NCBI GenBank assembly: GCA_963736115.1
Contig: CAVTNR010000001.1
Coordinates: forward strand, 32,001-96,000
Source: an uncultured bacterium
GTDB taxonomy: Bacteria; Zhuqueibacterota; QNDG01; DTFT01
DNA length: 64,000 nt
Reading direction: 5' to 3'
Part shown: positions 26,275-63,159 of the stretch, in pieces
Layout of the letters: every line of letters begins with the position of its first letter
How positions within the stretch are numbered: position 1 is the first letter of the stretch
Notes under the pieces: generated by a model
Database searches by the model: none
The model's input: the letters and a program-made list of their open reading frames with translations, nothing else
Told to the model about the DNA's origin: nothing
Position numbers and translations under genes: made by a program

Positions 26275-26278
26275 CAAT

Positions 26279-26412
26279 ACGTGCGGCGCGCCTTATAGGC
26301 GCGTTGCGCGCACCGGGCGCCAGACCTGAAAGGCCAAGAAGAAAGACTTTTCAGGTCTGGGTTTTGACGGCCACCCAACCTCCCGCGGGTTTATACCAAC
26401 CCGCGGGAGGTT
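26279..26412. repeat. Composite REP-like element copy 4 (A+B+C modules)
   Basis: gcgcgccttataggcgcg; cagacctgaaag…cttttcaggtctg; aacctcccgcgggtt…aacccgcgggaggtt. Confidence 0.75.
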
Positions 26413-26814
26413 TTTTCCGATCCTCCGATACGGTGACACTATTCGGGTGTTACCACCTCCTGCAAAATCACCTTGACTTGCTTCGATTATTTCGTTAATT
26501 ACTGATATCAAGCCGGTAATCCCGGACCATTCGCCTTCCTTCCTCTGTTTATTCCTGAACCTACTTCGAATGCGGCTCCGGCAGTAATTCCGAATCTATC
26601 CCCTTTCTAAACATGGGGATGAGGCATGCATCAGACTTCCCGATTTTCCCGCTGTCAATACCGGTTCCAGTCTCTCTCCGGCGTCCTGTGGTTCCGGATC
26701 TTCGGCGACTCAGGTCCATTTCCCGAATATCCGTTCTTTGGATAATATCGGATGTCTGTTTCGTACGCGTGCAGGCCGCGGCAATAATGGAGTATCATGA
26801 GGAAGGAGAAAGGG

Positions 26815-37559: not shown

Positions 37560-39200
37560 TTACCGATAGAGGCTTAACAGGTTGTCCCGCACACAAGAAA
37601 GCGCCGCATCGCCGCCAATGCCCGTCTTTTGATCGAATTTCACTTCGTATGATTTTCCGGTATTCAGATGAACGGCTATGATGGTTAGAATGCCGTCGAT
37701 GTCGAGCTTGAAGATCACATCGAACTTGTGAAATCCTTCCGGTTTGGGCTCGACATTCTCGATGGTCAGCTCGCCGATGGGCGTGTTCTCGAAAACAAAC
37801 TGGCCTTCTCCTTGGTAAATCGACACCTTGATTCTCGTGACATTTTCAGGATTGGTGATATTGGAGATCTTCACTTCGATCGGAATGTAGCTGCCCTGCG
37901 CGATTATCCGTACGCATTGGCCGCCCGCGACTCCGATTCCGATCGAATGCTCCGTGATCAGGTGGATCTGCCTGTCGTCCAAGGACTGATCGTTGAATGT
38001 CAACGATTCCCTCCGGCGCTTGATGTCGAATCCGCCTTCGGTGGAGTCGAACCGCCTGGCCAGTATCGCCGCGCCCCGAGCCGCTGCAGTAGCCGGATTG
38101 ATTTCACCGCGGATGAAACCATCGTCCTTCTTGAAATAATCCCGCAGCATCTCCCTGATCTTAGGGATTTTACTGGATCCCCCGACCAGGAGGACCGCGT
38201 CCACCTGGTCTCTTTCGATGCCTTTCTGTTCCCTGGCGTTGTTGATGGCCATATCGACATAGTTAAGGGATTTGCGAAGGAGTCCGTCGATCAGAGAAAG
38301 CATTACGCCCCGTGACAGTACCAGCCGGACGCCGGGTTTAATTGATTCAAATACAAGAGTTGTGTACTCATTGAAGGACAGGGAGATTTTAGCATATTCG
38401 GCGATCGATTTGAGATTCGCCTTCGCCTGCCAGTCCGAGCCGACATCGATTCCCTGCTTGCCCAGCTCCTCGACCGCCCATTCCCCGATGGCATCATCGA
38501 AATCCACGCCGCCGAGACGCGGGTCACCGGATGTCGCGATGACGCTGAGATTGCCCGTTTCCATCCGGACGATGGACACGTCAAACGTCCCGCCCCCGAG
38601 ATCGTACACCAGATAGGTTTTTTTCTCAGCTTCCTCCCGGTCCACTCCGTAGCAGATGGCCGCGGCTGTCGGGTCCGGGATGAGCTGCCTCGGATACAGC
38701 CCGGCGAGCAGGGCGGCTTCTTCCGTCGCCTTCTTTTGAGGCTCCATGAAGTAGGCCGGCACGGTCACCACCGCGTCGTGGATTTCCTCCCCGATTTCCC
38801 GTTCGGCGACTTCCTTCATCTTCATCAGGATGAAGGCGCTGATTTCCTGGGGCAGCATCCATTGGCCAGCGAAAAAAACCTTCACGGGATCCCCGGGCTT
38901 GAACACATTTTGGGCATTGAACCGTTCTAGGGATCTATTATTGGGCATGAATAGCTTACCCATATCCCGCTTGATTTCGATTATGGTGTCCTCTGGACGG
39001 ACGGGGAAATTGCGCTTGGCGGCAGCGCCCACAATGACCTTGCGAAGCATCGGGTCCGTGCTGACGACCGAAGGGGTCGTTTCGAAATTGGTGTCCGATT
39101 CCGGATTCCGGAGAATTTCAGCCTGTTCAATATGGGTATTATAGGAGGCTACGGCCGAATACGTCGTACCGAGATCGATACCGATTACTTTGTGATACAT
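37560..39200 (-). CDS. Hsp70-family protein, paralog 2 (C-terminally truncated, E171D-equivalent)
   Basis: [40 protein letters not shown]. Ends just after SBD-beta. RBS gggagg. Confidence 0.9.
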   Translation of the reverse strand: MYHKVIGIDLGTTYSAVASYNTHIEQAEILRNPESDTNFETTPSVVSTDPMLRKVIVGAAAKRNFPVRPEDTIIEIKRDMGKLFMPNNRSLERFNAQNVFKPGDPVKVFFAGQWMLPQEISAFILMKMKEVAEREIGEEIHDAVVTVPAYFMEPQKKATEEAALLAGLYPRQLIPDPTAAAICYGVDREEAEKKTYLVYDLGGGTFDVSIVRMETGNLSVIATSGDPRLGGVDFDDAIGEWAVEELGKQGIDVGSDWQAKANLKSIAEYAKISLSFNEYTTLVFESIKPGVRLVLSRGVMLSLIDGLLRKSLNYVDMAINNAREQKGIERDQVDAVLLVGGSSKIPKIREMLRDYFKKDDGFIRGEINPATAAARGAAILARRFDSTEGGFDIKRRRESLTFNDQSLDDRQIHLITEHSIGIGVAGGQCVRIIAQGSYIPIEVKISNITNPENVTRIKVSIYQGEGQFVFENTPIGELTIENVEPKPEGFHKFDVIFKLDIDGILTIIAVHLNTGKSYEVKFDQKTGIGGDAALSCVRDNLLSLYR

Positions 39201-39529
39201 TTTAATCCCTCCCAATAGATGGGAACATGCAGAAATTTATCGGTACAGGATTCTATCACTAGGGGATCAGATGGCGATTCATAAAATCGGAGCAAGGAAA
39301 TGCCATAGACGGCAGGCTATACCGAAAATACAAGAAGGTGGCTTTCGCGGAAATATAAGGATGTCTTTCACGCTGACGATCGTGTCTGTGGCCTTGTTGT
39401 TCTAGTATTTTAATCGATTTAGAATAGCAGAAGAGATGCGTATCAAAATCGTATTGAACCGAATGTTCGTTGAAAGTGGAAATCTTTCTTCCATGTATGC
39501 CAGATATTCTGAATGAATGTTTGCGGTAC

Positions 39530-42500
39530 TCACATGGTTTTGAGCACGTCCTTGATGTTGTTCAGCAATTTTACCGCCTCTGTTTTCATTTCGTTGTCCG
39601 GCGATTCGTGAATGACCCTCTCGAAATATGATGCCGCCTTTCGCAATTCAGACTCTCCCCGATCGCCGGTTCCGGCATGGTATTTCTCGGCTGCAGACTG
39701 GAATAAACAGAACGCGTAATAATAAACCGCGTGCAGATTGTCCTTGTCCAGGTCCTGTATCTCCTCGAAGCAGGGGAGAAGATCCCTGCATTTATCAGGA
39801 GTGTCCAGCCTGTCCACGGGGGCCAGAGCCGCGGCGACCATGAGCTGACGCTTGTTCTCTATAATTTTTGAGAGAATTTCGGGCTCAGGCCTGGTTTCTT
39901 CATCGCCCGACGATTCCAGGGAACGCAACGCTCCATCTATGTCTTCGTCGATAAGCGCGATCAGCGAATGCGCTTCTTCAGGATTGCCTTTGATCCATTG
40001 ATTGTAAACACCCAGTAATTGCTGCGCGGTCCTGAGGATGTCCGGACTGCTCTCCAACTCCTTCACGAGAAGATCCCGGGCAGTCCGATATTCCTTCTTC
40101 TTTATCGCATCGGCGACAAGCGCGGATCCCTTTCTGTCGGATAGCATCTCCCGGCACTGTTTGACGCCTTCGACGCTGATACCATGCTTCAAGCATCTTT
40201 CCAGGTGGGGGATCGCCTCCGCGGGTTGTTCGAGCTGGGAAAAAAGGAATGCGACAAGACGCGCCGGTCCGGTTAACTCAGGGAAATCTTTGCACCAGGG
40301 TTCGAGATCTGAAATAATCTCCCGGATTTTTTCCTCAGTCATCGGAGTTTCTTTCTGATACAACGCGTTCACTGAGTCAGGATAGAATGGCCTGGGGTCA
40401 TCCAACAGTGTTGCCAATTGCCTATTGTTTTCATCTGGACTTTTTGCCCACTCGTTGGATATTTTCCGCCAGAACTCTTTATGGCGCGGCAACGAGGCTC
40501 TGATCTGTTTAAATCGGGCACTGTCCGATTTAGAAAAATGGTCGCACAGATGGATGAACATATCTGAGGGATGAACGTGTCCAGAGTCTTGATAATGACG
40601 GGCGAGGTTTTCAGTTCATTTGCGATACCGTTTGCTGCGGCTTCGACGAGCTCCTTCTGAAATTGCGTCGGGATATCGTTCAGCCGGTCGAGAATAAGGA
40701 GAGAGTCAATCGATTTTATTTCTATACCCCAGTCAACTTCCCCCTGTTTGCTGAATTCTTTGTCATATCTCCAAAGTTGGGAGAAACCGAAAAAAAACAA
40801 GAATTTAAGCCTGTACACGTCCTCAATCCATTCGATGAGATGGCTCTCATCGGCGTGGTAGTTCGGATTGTTCGCCAGAGTCAGCCCTTCCGTCGTTTCA
40901 CAGAAAGAAAGGGCAGACTGAAGGCGCGAAACGCATGTGCTGCGGAATCCCCTTCCGATCCGTTCCGGCAATTCCTGGCACACGCGGTCGATGAATTGGT
41001 CCAACATATCTTTGTATCCGGTTTTTACCTGCTGGGCATGCTCCCCGCCATTTTTCTTTCTGTCTGTTTCGCCAGTCGGATCCTTTTGAAGGGACCGGTC
41101 ACGGCCCAGTAGGAGAACTGGAGTCCGCATTTCGAACCAGCGGTTCAGGAATTCGGCCTGCTTGTGTGCCACAAATTCCCGAAGCAGGCCCGGACTGTTG
41201 AGGAGATCGATCAGTTTCCGGACGCGGCCCTTGTGGTCTGGTGTCTGGTCCTTAGAATCCCATAAAAATCCGTTCGCGAATGCCCATGCAAAATTTTTAT
41301 GGAAATCAGACCGGGCCAAGGCTGAAACACGGGGGTTGTCCGTCGCGATCGCGTGGAAATAGAGGACTTCACAATACGATTTCCAGGATAGCAATGTCTG
41401 ACCGTGATCGGTCGAAGTCAGTGTGTCGCATACGGCGATATTTTTCAGCGCAGGCAGGTACAGACGGTCGATGTGCAGGCATTTTTGCCAAAGCAAACGG
41501 GCCCGGCGGCTTTTTCCGAGGCGATGAAGGGTGGTGGCTGCCTGCATCAAAACAGACATCTCGAGTAATTTCAGCTCAGGAAGGCCGCGTTGTTCCCCCG
41601 TATAGGCGTCAAACGTGGACAGACTGTGATCGATGATACTGTCGACTTCATCGTCGACCGCCTGAAGCGTTTGCCCCAGGCCTTCGGGCCCCGAAAAAGA
41701 GTTCGGTTCGATTTTCCGTCTCGGGGAGTCGGTTCCACCAACTGCAGGCTGCGCAACTTGGTTTTGAGCGGGAAGGGCCAATTTGACCAGGTGTCGGCCG
41801 AAGCGACCCTGAGCGGTCAGATGTTCCTTGAACCGGGATTCGAGTTCAGTCGCTTTCTTTTCAAGCGTCTTGTCCAGGGCTGTCATCCGCCGGGCCTCGG
41901 TGATGCGCAGGATGGCCGCTTCGTTTTGTTTCGGAAGGGAATTGATGAATAGCCTGATTTCCAGCGCGAGCGTCGCCTGTTCGGGTGTAAGCGTTCCGGT
42001 CTGACGGTCCTCGGTCGTCATCTGTTTCAAACGGGTCCAGTACGAGGCGATCTTTTCCGATGTCCCGGTCGATTCAATCCAAAGCGCATCCAGGACGTCG
42101 GCCGGAGACTCGAGTGATCCGGGCGTTCCTTCTCGAGGAAGGAGCCGTGATCGCCGTAGACTCGATCTTGCCGGACCATTCCACGAATTTCGGTGAAGCC
42201 GAATCCGCCGGTTTGTCGGGCTTGATCGGCATGGAAGCCAGCTTGGCGCCGATCCGGGCATGGATCTTTCTCAGGTTGGACGGCGGATTCAGCTCATTGA
42301 AGGCTTTTTTACATTCCTCCATTTTCAACGTGAACGCGTTGCGTCTCGTTTCCGGGGAAGCGGAAGGCCGAAGAACGGCGTCCAGTTCATCGGATGGAAT
42401 CCCGAGTATCTGTTTCTGGAGCCGTTCGATGCCCGAGAGACCGTTTGACGCCGATTCCTGAAGCCGGTTCAGGGCTGCGGTGAAGATCACGTGGTCCTTC

Positions 42501-43849
42501 ACCACCAGCGCGGCGGCTTCTTTGGCCGCAGCGGATTGCATCCTGGGCTCGAGATCGCCCTTTAACAGGTCGAATCCCTCCTGCGCCAGGTTCTTCAGAT
42601 TCTGATGGGACGATTCCAGCTGATTGATGATGTCGCGGGCCGCTTCCGGCGTGATGCGCTGGATCTCGGACGATGGTGCGGCCTCGACAATGGCCGGTGG
42701 GGGAGGGGCGTTCAGTTTGTTCGCAGCGCTGATCAGTTTCCGGATCAACGCATTCGATTTTTCGGCGGTCTCCGGTTCGGATTCCGGATGGCGGGATGGA
42801 TCGAGCAGTTGTTTGGCGGACCGGTATGCGCTGCTGGCGGGGAACTCGATTTTCCGCCAGAGCAGGCGTTTATCATGGATCAGTGCGATGATGAGAGGCG
42901 GCAGCCTGCCGCCGGATAACGAATCGGCCAGAGAACGGGGCAGATCCTCGGCCGGCATCTCAAAAAGCGAACAGATATGGTCCAGAAGGACCATGGCTTC
43001 AGGGCATTCCTTCACCTCGATTTTTTCCTTCAATTTCCGGATGGAAGAGACAGGGTAACCGATGATCAGCCATTGAACCGCGCTGATGACGAATGCCGGT
43101 ATCCCGGATTTCCGTTTCCTGCTCCGTTCCAGAATATCCCCCAGCAGCGGGGTTAGGGTCTCCATCCGCTTGCGGCTGGCTTCTTGCTCCAGATGCCGCT
43201 CGGCTTCAAGGTCAATAACGCCCGACCACCGGCATTCGTCCTCGCCGCTGAACCGGTTCATGGGCCCCGCGTCTGGTTCGGACGTTTCCTTTTTGGAAGG
43301 ATCTCCCTTCATGCCGGAAGGCATCGGCGCCGGCTGATCCGATTTCCTTGCTTCGGCTTCAACTGAGGCCAGGCTTTTTGGGGGTGTGAAATTGAGCAGA
43401 TCCTTTTCGAATGTATTCTCTTTTCCACGGATCTTCGAGATGATCCGATCGGCTTTTTTTCTCAAACCGTCCGGTTCGTACTCAGTTCGGCCTTTGTACC
43501 CATCGTTCAATTCATGATGCAGAATGGCGATGTGCGCCCAAAGCCGGTGGCTGGTGGGGCACAGCTTGACGGCATCCTTGAGCCATCGGCAGGCCGTTTC
43601 CAAGCTTCCGAGCGATATATAGAGACGAGCCAGATGATAGGAGTAACGGGGGTTCGTGTCGTCGATCCTGCGAGCTTCCAGAAGAAGGCGGATCGCGTCT
43701 GGAACGGGCGTTCGGGGGTGAAGCGCAAGGCGGAACAGGGATTCCGCCAGAGCCTCGGCGGATTCAAAGGAATGGCTGCGCTTCCGCTCTTCCCTGAACT
43801 TCTCGATAGCCCGATTGAGCCGCTCGGTGTCATAAACCAGTTTTTTCAT
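39530..43849 (-). CDS. Giant TPR/helical protein (~1440 aa) split by two apparent frameshifts (~42135, ~40562)
   Basis: ORFs 42074..43849, 40369..42261 and 39530..40561 overlap with continuous coding character. TPR motifs NPRYSYHLARLY, ALKNIAVC, AVYYYAFCLF. Confidence 0.65.
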
Positions 43850-43850
43850 G

Positions 43851-45575
43851 CTACGCCTTTCCGAAGAGGGACTGTAGCCGTGATCCGTCCGAAATCTGAA
43901 TGCCTCCGGTGGAGCCGAGCGCCAGGGAATCGATGCGGGGGTTGAAACTCAGAATGCCTGCGGCATGCGTGTATACGATTTGGCCGTTCTTGAGAAGGGC
44001 ATAGGTGTGGTCAGGATAAACGAATGAGACGTAGTGATCTTCATCCTGCACGCCGATACAGTAAGGCCTGGCGCCCTTTGTCGCATGGAATTTGATTCGC
44101 GGTACCAGCTGTTCGTCCACGAAAAGGCCGCTGCCGGTCTCATCCAAAGCAAGAATTCGATTTTCGGAGGGCATCGCATGGGATATGTTTGCCAGATTGG
44201 AATGCCAGGGTGTCATCTTCCATTCGGCTAGAGAATACTGGTACAGTTTCTTTTCGCCGATCATGACAATATGGTCCTTGAAGCGTTTCATCCCGATGAT
44301 GGAACGTTCCACCGGGAATTGTCGGACTGGCTGGTTCTCATGATACACGCAGAAATGACCCTGAAAATCGACAAGGCAGACGACCCGTCCGTCCGACTGG
44401 AAATCAAGGATTCCTGCCGGATGGCTGAACGACAGGCTTTTCTCACAGGAAGAGGAGTCGATCCGGACCATGTCGCCGTTCCACATTCCAACCATTACCT
44501 GTTCGCCGATGAGAATGCAATTCCCGGGAATTGCATACGATGGATTGCCCGGTTGTAATTGGATTTCCTTGCATTCACCGGTTTCCCGAATCAGAAAGAT
44601 GTTTCCGCACCAGTCGGCAAGTGCTATCAAACTGCCGGTGCATTGAATTTTTTTCATCTTCGAATGTACACGGACTTTGCCCAATAATTGTCCAGACAGG
44701 TCGAATACCCGGATATCGGTCAGATCGACCACGATGAACGCCTTACTTGTTTCGAAGAAATGGACTTGGGTGTTTTCTGGAGACCGGCCATATGGAACGG
44801 AAACGCCAGGACCTGGCGGAGGAGGTGGTGGTGTAGATACGACCTCGAAAGGATTGCTTGATGATGATTTATACCCATCGGAACTGGCCGTAATGATGAC
44901 ATGACCGACTGAATGCCGGAAGGACAGGTCATTAAATACCGCAACCCCCTGGGATGTCTTCTGTTTGAGGGTACCCTGAAATCCATCTATATTTGCTGTC
45001 AATTCAACAATTTGGTCTTCTGAGCCGGGTTGTCCCCGGTCGGAGAGTGAAAGGCTTATTGGAGGTAATGTATTGTGAATGACGACGTTGCCCAAAGGGG
45101 CTGCCCATTCAAGTTGTGGTACTTCACTGGTTATATTCAAACCCAAATCATGAATCAGTCGTGACAGCCAATGATCTGGATGTTTTTTTACGTCGAGATA
45201 ATGGATATGATTGATCGACATGGGAATCAGGGATTTTGCCTCTTGATCGAGAAGAATAGGAAATATCTTGCCGGCGCTCCCGGTCGGATCAATTTGCAAA
45301 GTCTTTGTCAGTTCCCATTGAGTCATTTGTTTGTTAAAATATAGCGTGGAATAAACCAGAATTACGCATCGGCTCCGGAAAATAGCTTTTGCAAGAGCGT
45401 CGAGATATGATTGAGAAATTTGAAGACCGTTATCTTCATCCAGGAAAATGCCCGGTCTTTTTCCTTGTGGCGTTTTACATTGAGTCAATGGGATGTACAG
45501 GGAATTTTTAACCCAATCGTACTCTTCGCGCGCATAGCTGATGAAAATGTCGTAGGTGAATTCGCTGTTTTCCAT
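43851..45575 (-). CDS. TIR domain + Ig-like + poly-Pro linker + beta-propeller protein
   Basis: YDIFISYA…IFLD…AIFRSRCVILVYS…WEL (catalytic-position Glu), GVAVFNDLSF Ig strand, PPPPPPGP, then WD-like blades. Confidence 0.85.
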   Translation of the reverse strand: MENSEFTYDIFISYAREEYDWVKNSLYIPLTQCKTPQGKRPGIFLDEDNGLQISQSYLDALAKAIFRSRCVILVYSTLYFNKQMTQWELTKTLQIDPTGSAGKIFPILLDQEAKSLIPMSINHIHYLDVKKHPDHWLSRLIHDLGLNITSEVPQLEWAAPLGNVVIHNTLPPISLSLSDRGQPGSEDQIVELTANIDGFQGTLKQKTSQGVAVFNDLSFRHSVGHVIITASSDGYKSSSSNPFEVVSTPPPPPPGPGVSVPYGRSPENTQVHFFETSKAFIVVDLTDIRVFDLSGQLLGKVRVHSKMKKIQCTGSLIALADWCGNIFLIRETGECKEIQLQPGNPSYAIPGNCILIGEQVMVGMWNGDMVRIDSSSCEKSLSFSHPAGILDFQSDGRVVCLVDFQGHFCVYHENQPVRQFPVERSIIGMKRFKDHIVMIGEKKLYQYSLAEWKMTPWHSNLANISHAMPSENRILALDETGSGLFVDEQLVPRIKFHATKGARPYCIGVQDEDHYVSFVYPDHTYALLKNGQIVYTHAAGILSFNPRIDSLALGSTGGIQISDGSRLQSLFGKA

Positions 45576-45626
45576 TGAGGTCCTCTCGCGGCTGATCGGG
45601 AAACCTGAGAAAATTGAACGACCGGT

Positions 45627-46496
45627 TCAGTACCGGCCGAACCGCTTCAACGAAGATTCGAAATGCCCTTCCCTGACGAAATCCATCAATGCGTTGATCC
45701 GGCAGGGGATGAACGGATGACCCGCATTCATGTTGATCGGTCCAGCGACCGGGGCCGAGACGAGCAGCGGATATTGAACCGAAAGGTATTTCTCAAGATC
45801 CACGTTACGGGCCAGTTCCACGCTTTTCAGGGCGACGGACAGCAGAGCAGAGGCGGCCTGTTTCCAGTCGCCGCACATCAGAAGACCGATCCGGTCGCAC
45901 CGGATTTCCATGCTTCGACAGTTGGCCATGACCTGGCGGTACACATTTTTCCATTCCTGGCCGGGAATGACGCGGTTCAGGACGTCTTCCTGGTTGTTGT
46001 CCACGAGATCCCGGATCAGGAATCCCAGCGACATTTCGCGGCACCATTCAGAGGTGTAGCTCAACAGATGCCCAGTTTCATGCCCGATGACGAAGGCCAA
46101 TTCGATCTCGTTGAGGTTTTCAACCAGCCGGGTTCCGAGCAGCATGATGGGCCGTTTATGACTGACCACACTGACCGCGGACCAGGAATCGATGCCCTTA
46201 CGGCCAAGATCCGAGACGACATAGACCTCGGGCCTGGCCCAGCCTGATTGACTGTACAGGTATTCGAACAATCGGTCCAGTCCGGGCAGCAACCGATAAT
46301 CGACCAGCAGGCCGCCATCCAGTCCGATGATCCGTATTTTCTCGGTCCACTCGTCATGCCGGGATTCGTAGCGATCCAGGCCCGGCACCTGGGCCTCAAT
46401 CCGGGACAGTGGGACGGATTCCCAGAGAAGCTGGAGATCGATAGCGCCCAGCCTGGGGAGCGATTGGGTATCGATGTCTTTCGAGATGAGTTTCAA
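45627..46496 (-). CDS. M48-family zinc metallopeptidase (soluble)
   Basis: ELAFVIGHETGH (HExxH), EIRCDRIG, HPFIPCR. No TM segment. Confidence 0.85.
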   Translation of the reverse strand: MKLISKDIDTQSLPRLGAIDLQLLWESVPLSRIEAQVPGLDRYESRHDEWTEKIRIIGLDGGLLVDYRLLPGLDRLFEYLYSQSGWARPEVYVVSDLGRKGIDSWSAVSVVSHKRPIMLLGTRLVENLNEIELAFVIGHETGHLLSYTSEWCREMSLGFLIRDLVDNNQEDVLNRVIPGQEWKNVYRQVMANCRSMEIRCDRIGLLMCGDWKQAASALLSVALKSVELARNVDLEKYLSVQYPLLVSAPVAGPINMNAGHPFIPCRINALMDFVREGHFESSLKRFGRY

Positions 46497-46508
46497 GGCT
46501 GTCTATTC

Positions 46509-48608
46509 CTATAATACACTATTGATTTGGGAGAGAATACCTTCGTACTGGGATACCATCTGCGACAGTGCATCCATCGCTCCCTTCGAAGAAACCTTCA
46601 TTTGAGCCAGGGATGCAGCGGATTTGGCGTTGGATACCCTGCCCCGGAAATTTTCCAGATCGTAACGACTCGTGAACTTCGAACCGGACTTCAACACTCC
46701 GATGATGGACAGGAATTCCTTCCCGTGTTCGTCGACGACAGCCTTGTCCTTGAACTGCGCCCGGAACGAGGCGTTCATGTCCTCGACCTGTTTGAGGTTG
46801 CGCTCCACTGCCTCTTCCAGCTGGTCGAGATTTTTTCTGGCGACATCCGTGATCAGCTTGCGGTTCAGGGCCGGAATCTCCCGCTTCAGTTTCCGCAGAT
46901 CCTCGGTGATCTCTTCCAACTTGGTCTCTGAGTCGATTCCTGATTTCGCCCGTTCCATGATGGCCTTGAAACGCTCGCCGGCCTGCTGGATTACCGCGGC
47001 ATCATTTTTCTGATCCTCGATGATCTTGCTCAGGGATTGCAGCGCTTCCAGATTGCGGTCAACCGCCTTGTCGAGCTGGGCCAGCGTCGCTTTAGAGTCA
47101 TCACCCGTAATGTCGGTCAGAGCCCGAGTGGCCTGTTTTTTCACTTCTTTCAACCGCTTGAGGAGCTCCTCGAACACCTGGGGGCTGTCGATTCCCTGCT
47201 TGGCCCTTTCCATGATGGATACGAATTCAGTGATGATGGTGTTGACTCTCCGGGTCTCCTCCTGACGCTTGATCAGCATCGAACGGATGCTCTGAAAGAA
47301 ATGGATCGCCTGCTCGACCTGGGCGAGTAGTTGGGCCGGAACGGGCTGACCCGGATCGGCTGCGGCCTGTCGGGCAAATTGGCGGGTTGTATCCAGTTCG
47401 GAAAGAACCGTATCAATGTCCGGGAGGCGCTGGTTCTGGAACGCGTCGTTGAACTGGCGGAATCGGCAGGCGGCGGTCAGGAAACTGAGAAATGGATATT
47501 CTGGAACGTACCGAAGCGCTGTGAATAAAATGCGCTCAGCGCCTGTAAAATCGCCTTGATTCATATGCTGTTGGGCCACTTGGACCTCGTCCCGTACGAT
47601 TAGGGACTGGAGTTTCTCCCGGTCCGCGGGCGATCCGGCCATCTTCACTTCGGAAATTTTCTTCGAGGAACCAAGCCGACCCAGCAGACCACCCGTTGAG
47701 AACTGCCTGAGATAGGCCTCGAACAACCGGGCTTCAGTGGTTCCCTTGTATCGGTCATCGACCTTCCCGAGCGCCCTCAATGCCCGCCCGAATTCCTCCT
47801 TTTTGAAATGCTCGATGGCCGGATGCAGTGCCATGTACAGGAGCTGGGATTCCAGATCGTTTTTCAAGCCGTTCAGAATCGACGGTACGTTGTGCCCGGC
47901 GACGCGGATCCCTTCCAGAACGCACTCGTACGCGGCGGCTGGGTTCCGCTGCCCCATCAGGAGGATCGCCTTGAAGGCATAGTATTCGGCGCGGCTTGGA
48001 TCGAGCTGCATCAGTTCGGACAGCTGGTTGAACAGCATGTTCGCGCTGAGGAGCATGAGAATGGGAAACTTGACGTAAACCTGGCCGCAGGCTTTCGTCT
48101 TCAGCATAGCGATCAGATCGGCGAGCGGTTTTCCCGTATGGGCGCCGTCTATGGAGGCGAGGATCCGCAGGGCGGTGATCTGCGTGCTGAGCGTTCCGAT
48201 CGGAGAATCCGAGTTCAGGATGCACAGCGCCTTCAGGTACAGGGCCTCGGGATGGGCTGGTTTCTTGGCCAGGTAGGCATCGAGCTTCTGAACGGCTTCC
48301 TGGTATTCTTTTTTCTGAATGTGCGCTTTCGCCTGCTGCAGCAGTGCGATGTCCACGTCGATGAGACCGCCTACCTGACGGAAGGCATCGTCCGGCAGTA
48401 TTTCCCCCAGACGCAGCGACTCATCCGACTTGGCACTGGCGGCCATTTTGTTGAGCTCCGCTTGGACGTCGAAGCCGTTCATCTTGGCCTTGCTGGGGTC
48501 GATGACCGGACCCTTCAGCACGAAACCTTCCTTGAACTCCGGCACCTTAGTGGAGACCTTCATCAACTCCGGTGCTTCAACGAACTGGCTTTCTTTAACG
48601 GCGGTCAT
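46509..48608 (-). CDS. TPR protein with three C-terminal ~85-aa helical repeats
   Basis: HPEALYLKALC and DPSRAEYYAFKA TPRs; repeats of F..IMERAK.GIDS…AV.RNL. Confidence 0.8.
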   Translation of the reverse strand: MTAVKESQFVEAPELMKVSTKVPEFKEGFVLKGPVIDPSKAKMNGFDVQAELNKMAASAKSDESLRLGEILPDDAFRQVGGLIDVDIALLQQAKAHIQKKEYQEAVQKLDAYLAKKPAHPEALYLKALCILNSDSPIGTLSTQITALRILASIDGAHTGKPLADLIAMLKTKACGQVYVKFPILMLLSANMLFNQLSELMQLDPSRAEYYAFKAILLMGQRNPAAAYECVLEGIRVAGHNVPSILNGLKNDLESQLLYMALHPAIEHFKKEEFGRALRALGKVDDRYKGTTEARLFEAYLRQFSTGGLLGRLGSSKKISEVKMAGSPADREKLQSLIVRDEVQVAQQHMNQGDFTGAERILFTALRYVPEYPFLSFLTAACRFRQFNDAFQNQRLPDIDTVLSELDTTRQFARQAAADPGQPVPAQLLAQVEQAIHFFQSIRSMLIKRQEETRRVNTIITEFVSIMERAKQGIDSPQVFEELLKRLKEVKKQATRALTDITGDDSKATLAQLDKAVDRNLEALQSLSKIIEDQKNDAAVIQQAGERFKAIMERAKSGIDSETKLEEITEDLRKLKREIPALNRKLITDVARKNLDQLEEAVERNLKQVEDMNASFRAQFKDKAVVDEHGKEFLSIIGVLKSGSKFTSRYDLENFRGRVSNAKSAASLAQMKVSSKGAMDALSQMVSQYEGILSQINSVL

Positions 48609-48619
48609 GGAGATTCCCT

Positions 48620-48847
48620 TTATTCTAGATCGATATTCTCAGGCTCCGGCACGTTTTCGAGTAGATGTTCGGCGGACCGCCGGCATAACTGGTATTCCTT
48701 CTCCTGGGTGATATCCGTCAGCTCAAGGATCGAGGATACGACGTTCATCTGTTCCGTCGAGAATTCCTCTGCTTTCGTGACGCTTTCGGAGCTCACAACC
48801 AGCGCTTCGAGCATCTTTTTCCTGTTGAGAGACTGGGTTTTGGCCAT
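48620..48847 (-). CDS. 75-aa acidic helical hypothetical protein
   Basis: Fits tightly in the operon (gaps of 3 and 11 bp). RBS gaggtga. Confidence 0.7.
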   Translation of the reverse strand: MAKTQSLNRKKMLEALVVSSESVTKAEEFSTEQMNVVSSILELTDITQEKEYQLCRRSAEHLLENVPEPENIDLE

Positions 48848-48850
48848 GGA

Positions 48851-50904
48851 TCACCTCTTTTTCCTGGTTTCCTTCGGGGCGGCCGGTTTGATCCTTCGCG
48901 TTTTCGCGGGTGGGCCTGCTTCCAAAAGGAGGATTTCCGCCGGCTCCGGGGTTAAAATACCTTCCTTTTCATCCTCCTCTTCAGGCAGCAGCACTTCGCC
49001 GGTGTAGACCAGAACCCGGTTGACTTTCGCCTCCACCTGATCGTAGGTGTCCTTGATCCGCTGAGTGTTTTCCGAAATCTCTTTCATCGATTTTTCCAAT
49101 TCCTCTTCGGCCTTTTTCCCCTTTCCGGCGGGGTCTTTCGATGCGCCGGCCTTGATCGCGCCGATGATGGCGCCCATCCGCTTACGGATGAATTCCTGCC
49201 GGGTGGAAAGGTTCTGAATGGTCGGCCCTTCGCCGCTGGTCGCCTGATCTTCGGTTATCATTTCCCCAAGGAGATGCCTGAAATGCGGGAAGGCTTCCAG
49301 GCGATGGATCAACTTTTCCTTCAGCTCCTCCTTCAGTACCTGAGGGACGCTTTTATTGTCCAGATAATTATTGACGATCGAAAAGTATGTTTTGATGGAA
49401 TCCTTCTGGAGTTCGTCCAGTTTTCTTTCCCGCTTGATGATGAGGTCCACCTCGGGAACTAGCGAGCTCGATTTCTCGAGCATGTCCAGCGACTCCTCCC
49501 GAAGCGCATTGTGGAAGAAGAAATAATCGACCAGCCCCTGAATCAGTTTGGGGTCGGGCATTTCGGAATCGATGGCCATGACCTTGTTCAGGCGATCACG
49601 AAGGCTATCCCGTTCCGCAGGGGTCAGGCCCGATTTTTCGTCTTTTTCGCACCATTCGTGAATCAGGGAGACCGCATGCCAGAGAAGGACGTTCCGGATC
49701 AGAAGGTCCTTGTCGTCAAGTTTGCGCTCGCCTTCACCCGCGTATTCATCGCCGCCGGATTTACCGGTTTTCGCCTTTTGCGATTGAGGATCCCCGTAGT
49801 CTTTTTCGAGCTTTTGTACAATACCCATCAGGGGTTTCCGCAGCTGGCTCCGTTCTCCGGAACACCACCGGCAGAGCAGAAGTCCGATTTCGGCGTTCAT
49901 CGTCGAACGCTTCTCCTGCGTCGCCCGTGCTTCCGCCGCCTCGAAATATTCCCTGGCCTGGAGGAATTCCTTGTTGAAAAGCGAAACAATGCCCAATGTG
50001 ACCTGGTGATCGCTGATACTTCCGGGAACCCGGTCTGCATGCACGCCCAGACTCCGTACGCGGTCAAAGTACTGAACAGCCTCCTTGATTTCGCGCTTTT
50101 TCCAGTGTTCTTTCCCGAGATTGAAGCAGGCGATGCTCATCAGCTCCTTCGATTTGAGAAAATCCTGGAGTGCATCCTGGTTGGTATCGTATATCTCATA
50201 AGCGTACTTGTATTTCTCCACTTTTACTTTCGCCCAAAGGTCCAAATACTGAACCGCCGGATCCGATAGGTTTACCCTAGACAGGTCCTCTATCGTCCCG
50301 CTGCAGTCGTCTCGCAGGGCGCGGAGGTAGGCGCGCGCAAAATAGGCCTCATCGAGGTCGTTCTGTTTGAGCCCTGAGGTGATGGCCTTTGTCAGCAGAT
50401 CCTCCGCGTCCGTATACTCGGTTCTCCTCTCCTGATCGATGATCCGGAGCGCCTGAAGCAGGGGTTTTCTTTTCTTCGCGGGCTGAATGATCGAGAAAAA
50501 AAGAATGAGCCCCAGAATCACCAGGATCAGAAAACCGAGCACGGTACCGCCGATCAGGATCAGACTTCTGTCTATTCCGGCGAACAGTCCCTTTTTCTCT
50601 CCGGCTGATTCTTCGGTCAGACCGGTTTCTGCGGCGCCGCGCCCGGAAGGGGATACTGCCGGAGTTCCCGATGGTCCGGTTTCGGGCGGAACGGAAGCCG
50701 AACTGTCGGCCGGGCCGACGGTTGTCCATGTGTGGTCCGGCTTGAGCAAGACCTGTGCGCGCCCTTCGTCCGGGCGAGTTCGTCGGCCACCGACGGAGCG
50801 GCGAGTATCGCCACAAGGAGAAGGATCGTCAGCCCCATGGCTTTCGTCCGGCTATTTTGTCCCATCGGAAGTTTGTTTCGGAAAATCCGCCTTGATCGCC
50901 GCAT
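48851..50904 (-). CDS. Single-pass membrane TPR/coiled-coil protein with signal peptide and short DUF3157-like exodomain; frameshift ~50765
   Basis: The signal MGLTILLLVAILAAPSVA joins with a one-base change to AQVLLKPDHTW. TM LILIGG…FFSII is followed by KKRK, then TPRs. Confidence 0.7.
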
Positions 50905-50934
50905 TTTCCCCTCTTTCCTTTTTTCTGGATACCG

Positions 50935-52517
50935 TTACCGTCTGCAGTCTGTCAGCATTTTCTCGAGCTGGAGGATCCGGCTGCCGAAACGCTCGATGAC
51001 CGCGGGCTCGACGCGCCGCGGATCCGTGACGGGATATCGTGCGACCGTGGACAAGGCGTTTTTAATCCCGTCCAGGAAGGCGCGAGCAGCCTCGAACTTG
51101 CCGGGGCTCTCCGGGATTTCACCGATCAACGCTTCCGAGTACAGCAGGGTCCGCGGAAATTCCCACCACATGAAGGTTGGCTGCCCTCGGGACGGGTCCC
51201 CACTTGCACTGGATGAGTAGTAAAGGTACGGGTGAAGAACCTGCTGGGCATTGACAAACTGGCCCTTTTTAATGAAATAGGACGTCACTTCCATGAACAG
51301 TCTGTCCCTATCGGTGGTTGGAAGCGCATGATAATCACGCCACGCCATGGCGATCATCTTGGCCGGGCTGTCCATCTGAATCTTCGACGGCGCGTCGGTG
51401 TGGTCCGGACCGGTCCAGTTGAGAAGAATCGCGAGCTGCAGCCGGTGGGATTCGATGTTCCCGGCGGGAGCCGATTGGACGGCCCGTTCGAGCCATTCCA
51501 AGCCAGCAACCGCGTCCTGAAGATCCTCCTTTGCGATCCTTCCGGCTAGTAGAAGGAGATCGAACCGGCTCTCTCCCAGACAGACATCCCCGATGAAATC
51601 GATGGCCTTTTGAAACCGTTTTTTAGCCCGGAGGTCTTCCACGACGGCTCGGGGATCCAGGCGGTCTGCGAGGTCCCGCAGCTTGACGGCCGCCTGGGCT
51701 GGATCCGCGTCTGCTCGGATCCGGGGATCTGGATCCAGTGCGGTCCGTACCATGTGCACGACTTCCGGATACAGATCGACCCGGTCGATCCAGATAGGCA
51801 TTCTTTTCGTGAGCCCCTCCGGCTCGAACAGGGTGCTGGACGCCCCTTTTTGAATGAGCAAGAAGGGGTCTTCCGTCGCGCTCCATGAAAAGAGGCATTG
51901 CATCATCATAACCCCGCACACGTAAATATCGAGGTTTCGGTCCCGGATCATTTTTCGGTTCCCCCGGATGAGTTCGGGGGCCAGAAATGGGATTCGGGAG
52001 GGTTCGGCGAGCAGTGTTTCGAAACGCGGCCAGTACCCCAGGACGGAAGCGCCAGCAGAACCGGCCACTGATCCTTGAATACGATGTCCGCAGGCATGGG
52101 GTAATTCACTTCCCCGTTCGTCTCCCACCAGACGGGCAGGGAACCGGCGACCTTCGACATGAGGAAAAGGCGGTTCCGTGGGTCGGCTTCGGACAGCAGT
52201 TCGAGCATGCTGCGTCCGCTTGTTTCATAGGCCACGTAGAAAAACAGGCTGCCCTGCACCGTCACGTCGCCGGTCTCCACGATCTGCGCCAGTCCCTGCC
52301 TTTGCGGTTTGCCGATCCACCCGTCTATTTCCGAGCGTTGGGTGAGCGACAGGACATCGTCGATCGGAAGGAGGCGGAAATACCGACTTCCGGATGCCTC
52401 CCGGTACACATAACCCCGCAGGCTCGGGCCCACGTATTCGAGCCGCTCGCCGGCCCTGCCGACCTGTAGCGTCGCGGGCGGGTTCAGCGGGTCATTTTTT
52501 CGCTTTTGCGTAGACAT
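50935..52517 (-). CDS. Degenerate protein-kinase-like domain + TPR; frameshift ~52038
   Basis: PMPADIVF (catalytic-loop-like), FLAPEL, DIYVCG, ALDPDPRIR. No HRD or DFG. C-terminal TPR-like helices. Confidence 0.65.
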
Positions 52518-54534
52518 CTTCGAGTGTGTCTCCCAAGTCTTCCAGCTTCTCGCCGGTAATTCCGGAATTCAGGGCTGATATGAAATCGCTGAACGCCTTG
52601 AGTAGGTTTGTGTCCGTCTCCTGGAGCAGATGTTTCTGCGTCCGACGGACGATGGATTTGAACTGTTCCGGAACGGGGAGTGCGGGTTCCGGAATTCCTC
52701 CCGCGGCCGGTGCTCCCTGGGCAGGCTCGGGCTTTACCGGAGTGGTGGGGGAACCGGGAGAAGGCGTCGCCGGTCCCGGCGCTGGCTGTTGCGGCTGGGA
52801 TCCGGGTACGGCTCCAGGCTGCGGGGGAGGGGTGAAGCCGCCCGGACCGGATGGACCCGGCTGCGGGGGGACCTGGACACTGCCGTGGGCATATAGACCG
52901 AGCAGTGTGTTTCGCTTCTGGATCAAGGCGGCGTCTCCCCCGATGCCCGTCTTCTGCTCGAATTTCATTTCATACTGCTTCCCGGTCTGCACGTGGAAGA
53001 CCACCATGGTCAGGAGTCCGTTGACGTCGAGCTTGAAAGTCACTTCGAACTTGTGAAATCCTTCCGGCTTGGGATCGACGTTCTCGATGGTGAGCTCGCC
53101 GATCGGTGTGTTCTCGAAAACAAACTCGCCTTCTCCCTGAAATACAACCGCTTTGATCCGCGTCGCATTCTCCTGATTGCCGAATATGTCGTTCTTCACT
53201 TCGATTGGGATGTTGCTGCCTTGAGCGATCATCCGCACGCACCTACCGCCCGCGACGCCGACCCCGAGCGAATGCTCCGTGATCAGGCGGATCTGCTGGT
53301 CGTCCACGGACTGGGCGTTCAATTTCAACGATTCATTCCGGCGCTTGATGTCGAATTCGCCCTCGGTGGGAGCGAATCGCTTTGCCAGTATCGCCGCGCC
53401 CCGGGCGACCACGGTGTCCGGATTGAGTTCGCTTTTGACGAAGCTGTCATCCTTCTTGAAATAATCGAGGAGCATTTCCTTGACCTTGGGGATTTTGCTA
53501 GAGCCGCCGACCAGGAGAATCGCATCCACCTGGTCCCGGTCGATCCCTTTCTGCTCCCGGGCGTTGCTGATGGCCTTGTCGACGTAAGTGAGGGACTTGC
53601 GAAGGAGTCCGTCGATCAGCGACAGAAAGACATCTTTCGTCAGGACCAGCTGGAGCTCGTGTTTAATTGATTCGAGCGACATCGTCGCGGATTCGTTGTA
53701 ACTCAAGGCGATTTTGGCCGGTTCCGAGACCGATTTGATCTTCGCCTTCGCCAGAGGGTCCGCGCCTACATCGATTCCCTGTTTGCGGAGCTCTTCGACC
53801 GCCCATTCCACGATGGCATTGTCGAAATCCCCACCGCCGAGACGCGGATCGCCGGCCGTCGCGATGACGTTCAGATTGCCCGTTTCAACCTGGATGATGG
53901 ACACGTCAAAGGTTCCGCCCCCGAGATCGTACACGAGATAGGTTTTTTTCTCCGTCTCCTCCCGGTCCACTCCGTAGCAGATGGCCGCGGCTGTCGGTTC
54001 CGGGATGATCTGCCTCGGGTACAGCCCGGCGAGCAGGGCGGCTTCTTCAGTCGCTTTCTTCTGCGGCTCCATGAAGTAGGCGGGCACGGTCACCACCGCG
54101 TCGTGGATTTCCTCCCCGATCTCCCGCTCGGCCACTTCTTTCATCTTCATCAGGATGAACGCACTGATTTCCTGGGGCAGCATCCATTCCCCTGCAAAAA
54201 ACACTTCCACAGGTTGTCCGATCTTGCGGGCGTTCTGGGCCCGGAATCGTTCCAGGGCGTTGTTTTTCTCTGAGAACAGCTCGCCCATTTCCCGCTTGAT
54301 TTCTATCACGGTGTCCTCGGGGCGGACGGGGCAATTTCGCTTGGCAGCAGCGCCCACGATGACCTTGCGGAGCATCTGGTCCGTGCTGACGACCGAAGGG
54401 GTCGTTTCGGGATTGGTGTCCGATTCGGGGTTCTTGATGATTTCAGCCTGTTCAGTATAGGTATTATAAGAAGCCACGGCCGAATACGTCGTACCGAGAT
54501 CGATACCGATCACCTTGTGCATTTTGTCGTTCAT
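52492..54534 (-). CDS. Hsp70-family protein, paralog 1 (divergent, Pro-rich tail)
   Basis: [31 protein letters not shown]-beta (VFQGE…FKLDVNG), a P/G-rich linker and a C-terminal helical domain. Confidence 0.92.
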
Positions 54535-55350
54535 GATTTTGCTCCTTGACTGGTGTGTGCGGCGCTGTCCTTGTGCGAACGGTTTTTATCACGGTCCGAA
54601 ACCGGACGGGTCTTCCCGATAATGACCCGGCAGGGCCTAACCAGAACCTGGCCCGCCCTGTACCCGGATTGTTCGACCCGGATCACCTTTCCCTCATCAC
54701 CTTCGCCGTACCCGAGGCATTCCATGGTCAGAGGATCGAAATCAGCCCCGGGCTGAACCTCGAAAGGGGTATAACGGAGGGCCTGGGTGATGCCGGTGAG
54801 AAGATCGAGTATGGAGTCCGTATTTTTCAGGAACTCCTTCTCGTTTTCGCTGCCTGAGTAATGACGTTTCATCGACTTCAGGGATTCCATGGCCGGGATC
54901 AGCGCGTTGAAAGTCGAACGTCCGATGAATTCCTTGCGGTCTGAAACGCAGGTTCTCCTTGAACCGTTCCAGCTCCATGCCGACCGAACGGGAGAGGGAC
55001 TCCTGGGCGGCCTGAAGCGACGAAACGGTTGCGATGACCTGCGTTATTTTACCTTCCAGATTGGAAACCATCCGGTAGAGGCCGACCATGTCTTCGGCCA
55101 GTTCTCCCAGGGTTTGGAGCAGGTCATCATTCTTACCGTCGCGGATTCCCGCCCCCTTGAAAAAATCGACCGTGAGGGTCTGTTTGGACAGATCCAGATC
55201 GATCGGTTCCTCACTCCCTGCGGCGCCCACCGGGTTCTGCCCGACGGCGGTTTTCGATTCCTTCCTGGGGGAGGTCCCGCTGGCCGATCCGCCGGATGGT
55301 TCGTTGTGCGGAATGTCCGGCTGATCCGCACTGGGCTTTGTTTTGTTCAT
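54531..55350 (-). CDS. GrpE-like nucleotide exchange factor; frameshift ~54949
   Basis: The coiled coil in 54742..55350 joins VSDRKEFIGRSTFNALIPAMESL, then PGADFDP…VIRVEQSGY…VRPCRVII. Confidence 0.8.
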
Positions 55351-55967
55351 GGTTCCTCCTCGTCGATCCGCTTGTTGTATTCAAAATCCGTGTTGAAAAT
55401 CCTCCGGGTCAGGTCGCTGGGATGAAAGCAGTGGAGATTTTTGATTTCTTCGAAAAAACGGGAGAGTTCCTTGCGGATATAGATCAGCTTTGTCCGGTAA
55501 CCGCTCAACACGTCCGCCCGGAAATCCTCGAAGCGGAGCAGGATGCAGGGAGGGTTAGACAGGTCGTACTTTCGTCGATCCTCTCCTTTCTCCAGCAAGA
55601 TCAGGTTGATCTCGTTCACTTCTTTGTCGATGCGCAGGATGTCGGATTCGATTTTTTTGAAATCGGGATCGGCCTTAAGGGCTTCCTTCTCCAGATCGAA
55701 GATTTCCCCGTTCAGTTTTTTCAGGGCCGCGGGATCGGATTTTTCGGAGTTTTTCTTCATGGTGTCCAGCCGGCTTCTGGCGGATGGAAGACCGGGGACG
55801 GCCTCGAAGATCTTGGCCTGCCGCGTGACAAGCGCCTGTCTTTGAGCATTCAGAGACTGCAAAAATTCTCCCTTGGCGTCCATGATTTCATTTGCGGTCG
55901 CGTCCGGGGTTAGTCCCAGTTTGGCGTAGGAAGTGTTTCGGCTGAGGATCACGGGGTAATTGAACAT
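55347..55967 (-). CDS. J-domain-like protein lacking HPD, with a coiled-coil insertion
   Basis: SYAKLGLTPDATANEI (J helices I/II) … EDRRKYD (helix IV). First gene of the operon. Confidence 0.65.
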   Translation of the reverse strand: MFNYPVILSRNTSYAKLGLTPDATANEIMDAKGEFLQSLNAQRQALVTRQAKIFEAVPGLPSARSRLDTMKKNSEKSDPAALKKLNGEIFDLEKEALKADPDFKKIESDILRIDKEVNEINLILLEKGEDRRKYDLSNPPCILLRFEDFRADVLSGYRTKLIYIRKELSRFFEEIKNLHCFHPSDLTRRIFNTDFEYNKRIDEEEP

Positions 55968-56526
55968 AAGACACCTGATCTCCCTGTGAATGGACGACTT
56001 GTCGTTGTTTTCGATGATGGGGTTCGATAAGGAGATGGAAAGGAGGCGTTATCTGTCGGCCATCCCATAGGCATGAATAAAAAAAGGAATGGCCCACCGC
56101 TGACTCGGAATTTGCAGCGTTGGAAATCCTCACTCCCTCCCCAGAATAATGGTTTTCGAAAAAACGAAAAGAAGAGCCCGACAAATCTCTATAAATAAAT
56201 AATAATAAAACGATGAGTATACAGGTATAGGAATAATGTTTGCAAAATATTGATTATTTGTTTGAAAATCAAGAAGAATGTCCGGCATTTCGACATTAAA
56301 AGGCATAATATCCAGAATATATAATCATATAGAGTTTGAAAGCGAGCGGGATTCCGCTGTCGCCAAAATGTAAACAATTATAATTAAACAGATTACGAAA
56401 CAACAGAAAGATATTCCTCATTCTGTGTCCGCAGGGGTGGTTCTGGCATTTTTCCAAATTACTATCAATAGTAACGACATCTGAAGAAGAGGAAATAATC
56501 CAGGCGTTTGAAATCAGCCCACGGTT
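55968..56526 (-). promoter_or_regulatory. AT-rich intergenic promoter region of the J-GrpE-Hsp70 operon
   Basis: About 560 bp, non-coding, and visibly AT-rich against the GC-rich background. Confidence 0.45.
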
Positions 56527-59800: not shown

Positions 59801-59815
59801 GGCGTATCATCCCAC

Positions 59816-60829: not shown

Positions 60830-60846
60830 GGCGTCCTCCTTATTGT

Positions 60847-63114: not shown

Positions 63115-63159
63115 ACGTTCTCCTGTTCTGGGTGATCCAGCCACCCGATCCGGATAAGG

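Follow-up and report, generated by a model that had tools for sequence, protein, structure and literature searches.

The window analyzed here is a 64,000-nucleotide (nt) stretch of contig CAVTNR010000001.1 from an uncultured bacterium of the Zhuqueibacterota. Its minus strand carries, at positions 37560-55967, an operon centered on an Hsp70 protein, and our comparisons indicate that this operon represents one real, conserved, and rare gene system found in several bacterial phyla. Six genes are universal in the system. They encode a J-like protein, a lidless Hsp70, a pseudokinase-TPR protein, a single-pass membrane TPR protein, a TIR-propeller protein, and a giant TPR protein. Most non-actinobacterial versions add GrpE, a small protein with an acidic tail, and a TPR/coiled-coil protein. 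The M48 peptidase and the second Hsp70 of the window are, by their distribution, lineage add-ons outside this core.

Conservation of the gene system

The Hsp70 search covered one genome per species, the pseudokinase search covered 1.84 billion representative proteins, and an alignment of the TIR-propeller protein was searched against metagenome contigs. Hidden Markov models (HMMs) made from the homologues were run on all open reading frames (ORFs) of 114 loci. The Hsp70 and TIR-propeller positions both fall within the sequence of 12 loci (the window, L005, L006, L007, L044, L046, L047, L051, L052, L053, L062, and L125). In all 12, the pseudokinase and membrane TPR genes lie between these two in identical order, so the operon is more than a chance assembly. 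The giant TPR gene comes next in 11 of the 12, and the remaining locus stops at a contig edge. Nine loci extend upstream of the Hsp70 gene, and all nine, the actinobacterial ones included, have the J-like gene 5' of it. GrpE is present in seven of these nine and missing from L007 and L047; the actinobacterial forms have the J-like gene and no GrpE. The same two loci lack the TPR/coiled-coil gene, which is found in the other 10 of the 12, and the small protein sits between the membrane TPR and TPR/coiled-coil genes in every locus of the TPR/coiled-coil type (11/11, the window counted). The initial annotation had expected homologous Hsp70s to co-occur with TPR, TIR, and M48 genes. This holds for the TPR and TIR genes and fails for M48, which occurs in three of the 12 loci, namely the window and its two closest relatives, L005 and L006.

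The HMM scan found the partner genes in none of 26 DnaK-like loci and in none of 64 unrelated TIR loci, in agreement with the earlier statement that housekeeping dnaK operons lack these partners. Hsp70 identity among the system loci spans 43% to 83%, and the conserved order is therefore not an artefact of near-identical genomes. As labelled in their records, the loci belong to three or more phyla, among them Actinomycetota, Thermodesulfobacteriota, and that of the window, and homologues are also found in Planctomycetaceae and Streptomyces records. The idea that the genes form one conserved unit around a distinct Hsp70 subfamily is thus borne out by the order in 12/12 loci and by the separate Hsp70 clade described below.

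A rearranged variant was seen in Paractinoplanes (L035, 4739-15017), where a giant TPR gene, a J-like gene, an Hsp70 gene with the C-terminal domain, and a membrane TPR gene are present. This variant has no pseudokinase and only a weak upstream TIR match.

Gene content and organization of the operon

The operon coordinates and gene content as first described are confirmed. Re-reading the coordinates gave eleven minus-strand genes in 37560-55967, with Pfam matches to HSP70 (twice), GrpE, Peptidase_M48, and TIR_2. Lengths are given in amino acids (aa), and all features below are on the minus strand.

55968-56526 (-): upstream intergenic region, 559 nt, AT-rich, 5' of the J-like gene
55347-55967 (-): J-like protein, 206 aa, no Pfam match
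54531-55350 (-): GrpE, Pfam GrpE 5e-9 on the C-terminal part
52492-54534 (-): Hsp70a, 680 aa, Pfam HSP70 5e-118
50935-52517 (-): pseudokinase-TPR protein, about 525 aa when intact, weak TPR match
48851-50904 (-): membrane TPR protein, weak TPR matches; true start at 50904 masked by a frame break
48620-48847 (-): small protein, 75 aa
46509-48608 (-): TPR/coiled-coil repeat protein, 699 aa, TPR_16 2.6e-5
45627-46496 (-): M48-like zinc peptidase, 289 aa, Peptidase_M48 1.6e-9
43851-45575 (-): TIR-propeller protein, 574 aa, TIR_2 1.1e-13
39530-43849 (-): giant TPR/helical-repeat protein, about 1440 aa, TPR matches
37560-39215 (-): Hsp70b, 551 aa, Pfam HSP70 1.6e-109

The junctions of the first ten genes are overlaps of 4, 4, and 26 nt followed by gaps of 30, 3, 11, 12, 51, and 1 nt. 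All nine junctions are thus an overlap or a gap of 51 nt or less, and the ten genes are translationally coupled. The tight coupling described before stands, and the gap of about 330 bp that had been given before Hsp70b is corrected to 314 nt from the giant TPR gene. The 559-nt AT-rich region at 55968-56526 is likely the operon's own promoter region. It contains one match to a sigma-70-like promoter on the minus strand at 56245-56216, 5' of the J-like gene, which is a consensus match only. The sigma-54 consensus gave 16 matches, against 20 expected by chance, and none of them lies upstream of the operon on its strand.

The Hsp70 proteins and their co-chaperones

In Hsp70a, the ATPase motifs and the beta substrate-binding domain are intact. 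The Pfam HSP70 match covers model positions 1-501 of 599, and the alignment has no recognizable helical lid: after the beta substrate-binding domain there are about 17 residues and then a Pro-rich linker. A helical domain of ~60 aa at the C-terminus is conserved and was seen in 10 loci. Hsp70a is 34-39% identical to DnaK. It scores 388 bits against the NCBIfam DnaK model NF001413, below the cut-off of 648, and 330 bits against HscA, below the cut-off of 620. In a quick IQ-TREE tree, 13 system Hsp70s split from 25 DnaK-like rows on a branch with a support of 100 by the Shimodaira-Hasegawa-like approximate likelihood ratio test (SH-aLRT).

These properties bear on whether the locus is simply an alternative heat-shock dnaK operon that happens to lie beside unrelated TPR, TIR, and protease genes. 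The adjoining GrpE and Hsp70 genes do resemble classical dnaK operons. However, the partners are kept in 12/12 loci and absent from all 26 DnaK-like loci, Hsp70a falls below both the DnaK and HscA cut-offs and lacks the lid, and the genome has a separate housekeeping dnaK. Synteny over Hsp70 identities of 43% to 83% already contradicts this explanation, which we consider hardly credible.

Hsp70b, which shares 76-77% identity with its paralogue Hsp70a, lacks the Pro-rich linker and the C-terminal domain. In the same tree it is nested in the window's own clade with supports of 91 and 94. Hsp70b is absent downstream of the giant gene in G171 and G115 and absent genome-wide in G170, G171, and G115; in G170, the giant gene ends only about 140 nt from the RyR gene, which leaves no room for it. 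The second Hsp70 had been counted as a member of the system, and this claim is not upheld, as it was found in the window genome only. We also considered the C-terminal domain of the Hsp70 as a binder of the pseudokinase and set this aside: L047 has a pseudokinase without the domain, and L035 has the domain without a pseudokinase.

GrpE scores 36.5 bits in the C-terminal part of the window copy and 47.1 bits in the intact L005 orthologue, against a Pfam gathering cut-off of 25.8, and by these matches it is the dedicated nucleotide-exchange factor of the operon. The J-like protein is more distant from its namesake. Its N-terminus resembles helices I and II of a J-domain and is followed by a long helical hairpin, and a C-terminal motif, P-S-D-L-x-R-x-D-F, is conserved. 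A profile of 15 homologues matched the DNAJA1 J-domain (E 1.2e-4) with non-HPD residues opposite the HPD motif. No HPD motif occurs in the 15 aligned homologues or in three short actinobacterial forms. The AlphaFold2 (AF2) model, with a predicted local distance difference test score (pLDDT) of 74, is an all-helical hairpin. A Foldseek search of the model against the PDB gave no match at E <= 0.001, and a wide fold search returned generic coiled coils with Z <= 8.7. Pfam DnaJ gave no match. A complex prediction of Hsp70 (residues 1-560) with the J-like protein scored 0.00; controls were not run, and it gives no verdict either way.

The pseudokinase, repeat proteins, small protein, and M48 peptidase

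The AF2 model of the pseudokinase (pLDDT 93.9) has a Hanks-type kinase fold followed by a TPR domain. Foldseek matched it to PknB (4.9e-8; template modelling (TM) score by target 0.58-0.63), with the kinase-plus-TPR protein PknG among the top matches, and it also matches Atlas clusters of kinase+TPR proteins. The Gly-rich loop, the APE motif, and the Arg of subdomain XI are kept in the family. The HRD and DFG motifs are absent, with the consensus PMPADIVF and LLALP at these loops, and strand 3 has a near-invariant Arg (R50) at the expected position of the ATP-binding Lys (VAIK). These positions were mapped by their order along the fold, not by residue-level structural superposition. The protein is a pseudokinase by motif because it has no HRD, no DFG, and an Arg for the ATP-binding Lys, and Pfam Pkinase gave no match to it. 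Its C-lobe is weakly similar to IRAK4, RIPK4, and BRAF (E about 0.006), which we take as a lead only.

A strong transmembrane segment was found in 14/14 N-complete orthologues of the membrane TPR protein. In the window clade, the sequence predicts a signal-peptide-like start, about 80 aa outside, one transmembrane helix, and a large cytosolic helical-repeat domain. Neither the TPR/coiled-coil protein nor the M48 protein has a transmembrane segment. The giant TPR protein is a single ORF in G171 (L124) and in G115 (L125, 1292 aa). The small protein was found by tblastn in 8 loci (E 3e-35 to 2e-4) and by eye in L046 and L053. It has an acidic C-terminal motif, ...HLL..VPEPD..D-L/I-E, and as a lead only, this tail is a possible ligand of a TPR clamp.

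The M48 protein scores 38.3 bits against a Pfam cut-off of 20.3, carries HETGH with a downstream Glu, and is soluble. Its earlier description as an HExxH protease is supported by the family match and the motif; its place in the core is not, as shown by its distribution. The earlier labels of the pseudokinase-TPR protein, the membrane TPR protein, the small protein, and the TIR and propeller domains hold, based on structure, transmembrane, and homologue searches.

The TIR-propeller protein

The TIR_2 match reaches 52.2 bits against a cut-off of 28. A profile search matched solved TIR domains (2.6e-9), including bacterial TcpB, PdTIR, and AbTIR, with the Glu column aligned. E88 is invariant in an alignment of 11 sequences and aligns with the Glu of the W/C-x-x-E motif of solved TIR domains, and we take this column to be the catalytic TIR Glu. 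The initial annotation had proposed a TIR domain with a catalytic-type Glu, and the invariant E88 agrees with it. The protein consists of the TIR domain, a middle beta-rich domain, and a C-terminal beta-propeller (Atlas structure model, TM 0.57-0.65). Of the earlier TIR-Ig-propeller label, the two ends stand, while Ig for the middle domain goes back to a single weak feature lead. Many residues are invariant in both the propeller and the TIR domain of the 11 aligned sequences.

Frame breaks in the window copy

Comparison with intact orthologues placed five 1-nt frame breaks within about 18 kb of the window copy:

near 54949-54959 (-): GrpE, 1-nt insertion
near 52041 (-): pseudokinase, 1-nt deletion, in a C-run
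near 50760-50790 (-): membrane TPR protein, 1-nt break; N-terminus recovered via L005 and L006
42111-42152 and 40498-40555 (-): giant TPR protein, two breaks, 1 nt each

Such breaks would be expected if the window copy were a decaying relic, in which the frameshifts are real and the system is non-functional here, whatever it does elsewhere. Four genes are hit, the giant TPR gene twice, and the orthologues in L005, L006, L124, and L125 are unbroken. However, the housekeeping dnaK of the same genome (G000:C8:16482-18314) is also split, across frames 3, 1, 2, and 3 within about 1.8 kb. Such a split would be lethal or near-lethal if real, which points to an indel-prone assembly. The assembly is therefore indel-rich, and any frameshift in this genome needs caution. 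One of the operon breaks sits in a C-run, and outside the break points the frames are open and 57-85% identical to the orthologues. We thus read the five breaks as most likely assembly errors, and a relic as improbable.

Distribution and genomic island

The system is rare. At E <= 0.001, 152 representatives from the 1.84 billion clusters belong to the pseudokinase family, and the TIR-propeller family has 11 proteins in a word-indexed set of 5.8 billion. The pseudokinase occurs in four of 167 species genomes of the window's phylum and in two of four genomes of its genus, the window genome counted. Among 401 sampled Actinomycetota only the query genome had it, although three candidates were scored per genome and weak matches were possibly missed. 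The Nocardia pseudokinase as query found nothing in metagenomes. Viral contigs contained no relative of the system Hsp70 and one unrelated TIR match only.

The operon lies in a 33.6-kb segment, from window position 34555 to about 68200 (C1:66555-100250), that the genome G029, of the same genus, lacks at this site. In G029, about 290 nt join the GH3 gene (window 34554) to sequence that matches C1:100250 onward. Because G029 runs directly from one to the other, the window genome carries a 33.6-kb island at this site. The GC fraction is 0.49-0.57 in the operon and about 0.60 in the flanks, and the flanks differ in every other genome. The gene set is thus horizontally mobile and accessory.

Within these 290 nt, exactly at the empty site of G029, lies a dispersed repeat of ~115 nt (L144, G029:C189, 1205-1340), with copies of 80-96% identity on many contigs; in the window genome, copies occur on C5, C10, C11, C12, C27, C28, and others. 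It may be a repetitive extragenic palindromic (REP)-like or miniature inverted-repeat transposable element (MITE)-like element.

Proposed function of the system

We propose that TPR proteins form a membrane-tethered scaffold, within which a TIR NADase is gated by a dedicated Hsp70 cycle. The four repeat proteins would assemble into a large structure held at the membrane by the single-pass TPR protein, and the short outside segment of the latter could convey the state of the envelope. Hsp70 would serve as an ATP-driven switch, with its own GrpE and the HPD-less J-like partner driving its cycle, and would hold the TIR-propeller protein, the pseudokinase, or both inactive. Upon a trigger, which might be a phage protein, proteotoxic stress, or envelope stress, Hsp70 would let the TIR domains assemble. 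The assembled TIR would cleave NAD+, and the resulting depletion or signal nucleotide would lead to growth stop or aborted infection. The window lineage would have added the M48 peptidase and the tail-less second Hsp70. The data establish the gene set and its conservation, the domain identities, the loss of the kinase catalytic motifs, the invariant TIR Glu, the membrane anchor, and the position on an island, while the protein contacts, trigger, NADase activity, and defense role of the proposal are conjectural. Taken as a whole, we judge the proposal about evenly poised between right and wrong.

Several observations weigh against this proposal. No operon protein had a system-level match in PADLOC. 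Among 24 proteins encoded in the flanks of seven loci, PADLOC recognized no named system, and its sole matches were to shared AAA+/ATPase domains (RtcR-type and, weakly, TmtA). The flanks in Nocardia are ordinary metabolic and regulatory genes. Because the other flanks gave no named system, the support for a defense island comes mainly from the island of the window. The propeller and TIR domains have many invariant residues and not the hypervariability that is typical of direct phage sensors, and some TIR domains are scaffolds without an enzymatic role. Canonical stimulation of the Hsp70 ATPase by the J-like protein is doubtful because that protein lacks HPD. The five frame breaks also mean that the window copy may be decaying.

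Some of these points would suit a non-immune module for chaperone-assisted membrane signaling or stress. In such a module, the Hsp70 set would fold and maintain the huge TPR scaffolds, the scaffolds would relay an envelope or proteostasis signal, and the TIR domain would give an NAD-linked metabolic or scaffolding output controlling dormancy or development. The conserved short outside segment of the membrane TPR protein fits this picture, as do the hosts, which include developmentally complex Actinomycetota with GGDEF, TetR, and metabolic genes in the flanks. The lack of known defense genes in the flanks by PADLOC and sensor-like domains that are conserved rather than hypervariable point the same way. 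However, the occurrence is patchy even among genomes of one genus, the operon is part of an island, an invariant Glu of the catalytic type speaks for an enzyme, and the island also holds MoxR-vWA, NUDIX, and SLOG genes. NUDIX and SLOG families are tied to conflict systems in the literature on nucleotide-centric systems. MoxR-vWA modules are likewise tied to conflict systems in the parts of PMC7159879 that bear on them. We regard the non-immune module as rather unlikely, yet as the alternative that deserves the most attention.

The TIR NADase scaffold could also be taken further, to a bacterial transmembrane TIR signalosome. Here, the lidless Hsp70 would stand in for the STAND NTPase of NLRs, and a guarded pseudokinase decoy and a receptor-like membrane TPR protein would feed TIR assembly. 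Such a system would be a prokaryotic counterpart of receptor - TIR - (pseudo)kinase immune signaling, with the chaperone engagement itself being sensed. The likeness of the pseudokinase C-lobe to IRAK4, RIPK4, and BRAF and the acidic tail of the small protein are leads that fit it. We offer this extension as a long shot.

Relation to known systems

PADLOC reported no system on 14 operon ORFs. Its best matches were to the TIR domain only, PDC-S66 at 2e-7 and ThsB (ThsB1) at 0.006, with no ThsA. NCBIfam names none of the system-specific proteins, and we found no description of this gene set in the literature, although paper supplements, including the eLife 2020 source data, may list related neighborhoods. 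The initial annotation's proposal of an undescribed system therefore stands as far as the gene set is concerned. The kind of system is not wholly new, because earlier publications have already put forward Hsp70 as the NTPase switch in conflict systems (PMC7159879; preprint 10.64898/2026.10.19.760177). Our comparisons point to a real, conserved, and so far unnamed system that is a variant of the NTPase- or chaperone-gated conflict-system idea, with a function that is inferred.

The closest published theme is the Hsp70/GrpE theme of the GAP1-N2 GTPase-centric conflict systems (Kaur, Burroughs, Iyer & Aravind, 2020, eLife 9:e52696, PMC7159879), which the passages on it interpret as regulated assembly of an effector complex. 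According to these passages, the theme shares with our system a dedicated Hsp70 with its own GrpE, partners bearing J-domains or TPRs, sometimes a second truncated Hsp70, membrane association, and actinobacterial occurrence. Those systems are defined there by GAP1-N2, TRAFAC GTPases with zinc ribbons, and FNIII-repeat proteins, whereas Pfam found no GTPase or fn3 domain in the operon proteins of the window, L005, L007, L053, and L125 (no GAP1-N2 model was scanned). Neither a pseudokinase nor a TIR-propeller protein appears in the passages on the theme.

Hsp70 or Hsp90 is named as a possible NTPase replacement in STAND/NLR-like tripartite proteins in the relevant section of the preprint 10.64898/2026.10.19.760177. 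The parts laid out there recur here as a TIR effector, an NTPase switch (here Hsp70), and superstructure-forming repeats (here TPR and beta-propeller). In our system, however, these roles are spread over nine or more genes, a pseudokinase and a membrane anchor are added, and the Hsp70 still has a substrate-binding domain and co-chaperones of its own. A lidless DnaK-like domain has also been described as fused to EACC1-protease death modules (preprint PMC12642450). As presented in the portion on these modules, an Hsp70 relative without lid helices is likewise recruited to a regulated cell-death or defense-type module. There, the domain is fused to a cysteine protease that is paired with the EACC1 pore-former, and it has about 50% identity to DnaK, whereas here the Hsp70 is encoded by a stand-alone gene, has 34-39% DnaK identity, and the effector is TIR.

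Thoeris, other TIR systems, and BcTir/Tpr (bioRxiv 10.1101/2023.05.26.542521) resemble the operon in having a TIR domain with a catalytic-type Glu and TPR proteins, with NAD+ cleavage expected. A ThsA-type partner (SIR2, Macro, or SLOG) is missing from the operon, and Thoeris and BcTir/Tpr, in the parts of their descriptions considered, have neither chaperone nor pseudokinase. Mycobacterium tuberculosis PknG (PDB 2pzi) shares the kinase-then-TPR architecture, but PknG is an active kinase and the operon protein lacks HRD and DFG and has Arg at the ATP-binding Lys.

If the proposed TIR NADase scaffold is right, control of a TIR effector by a private Hsp70 cycle, complete with exchange factor and J-like partner, would be seen here for the first time in a multi-gene bacterial system. 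It would also provide a tractable model for the chaperone licensing of immune receptors, so far known mainly from plant and animal NLRs. Four diagnostic families have no library model (the J-like, pseudokinase-TPR, membrane TPR, and small acidic-tail proteins), and intact orthologues are available, including one in a cultured actinomycete.

Neighboring genes

Convergent with Hsp70b and also part of the island is a gene at 34893-37481 (+), whose 862-aa product combines a Walker-A ATPase region with an RyR domain at the C-terminus (Pfam RyR 1.1e-15). Homologues of this protein adjoin unrelated TIR genes in the metagenome loci L115 (1e-50), L123 (1e-20), and L072 (1e-11). On the other side of the operon, beyond the 559-nt AT-rich gap, the island carries at 56527-63144 (-) a module of ClpA-like, MoxR, vWA, and unknown genes. 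The Clp/MoxR/vWA module was considered as a conserved partner and rejected, as it is adjacent only in the window and the same-genus L005, and the neighbors in G115 differ.

The right end of the island (L145, G000:C1:95000-100500) contains a sigma-54 activator at 278-1978, a NUDIX gene at 2003-2443, and at 2391-4925 a gene for an 844-aa RelA/SpoT - SLOG (LSDAT_prok) - RyR protein. From their domains, these genes form a nucleotide-signaling-type trio that shares its island with the TIR gene. Other genomes showed no conserved link between the trio and the Hsp70 operon.

In G115 (L125:300-1847, +), a separate 515-aa protein with TIR_2 and TPR is encoded downstream of the giant TPR gene, beyond a FlgD_ig gene and on the convergent strand. 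The window itself has, at 18916-30510 (+), a run of large secreted proteins with FlgD_ig or Por_Secre_tail sorting domains, together with BNR, CotH, LTD, and BACON_2. Such a run is typical of type IX secretion cargo in bacteria of the FCB group.

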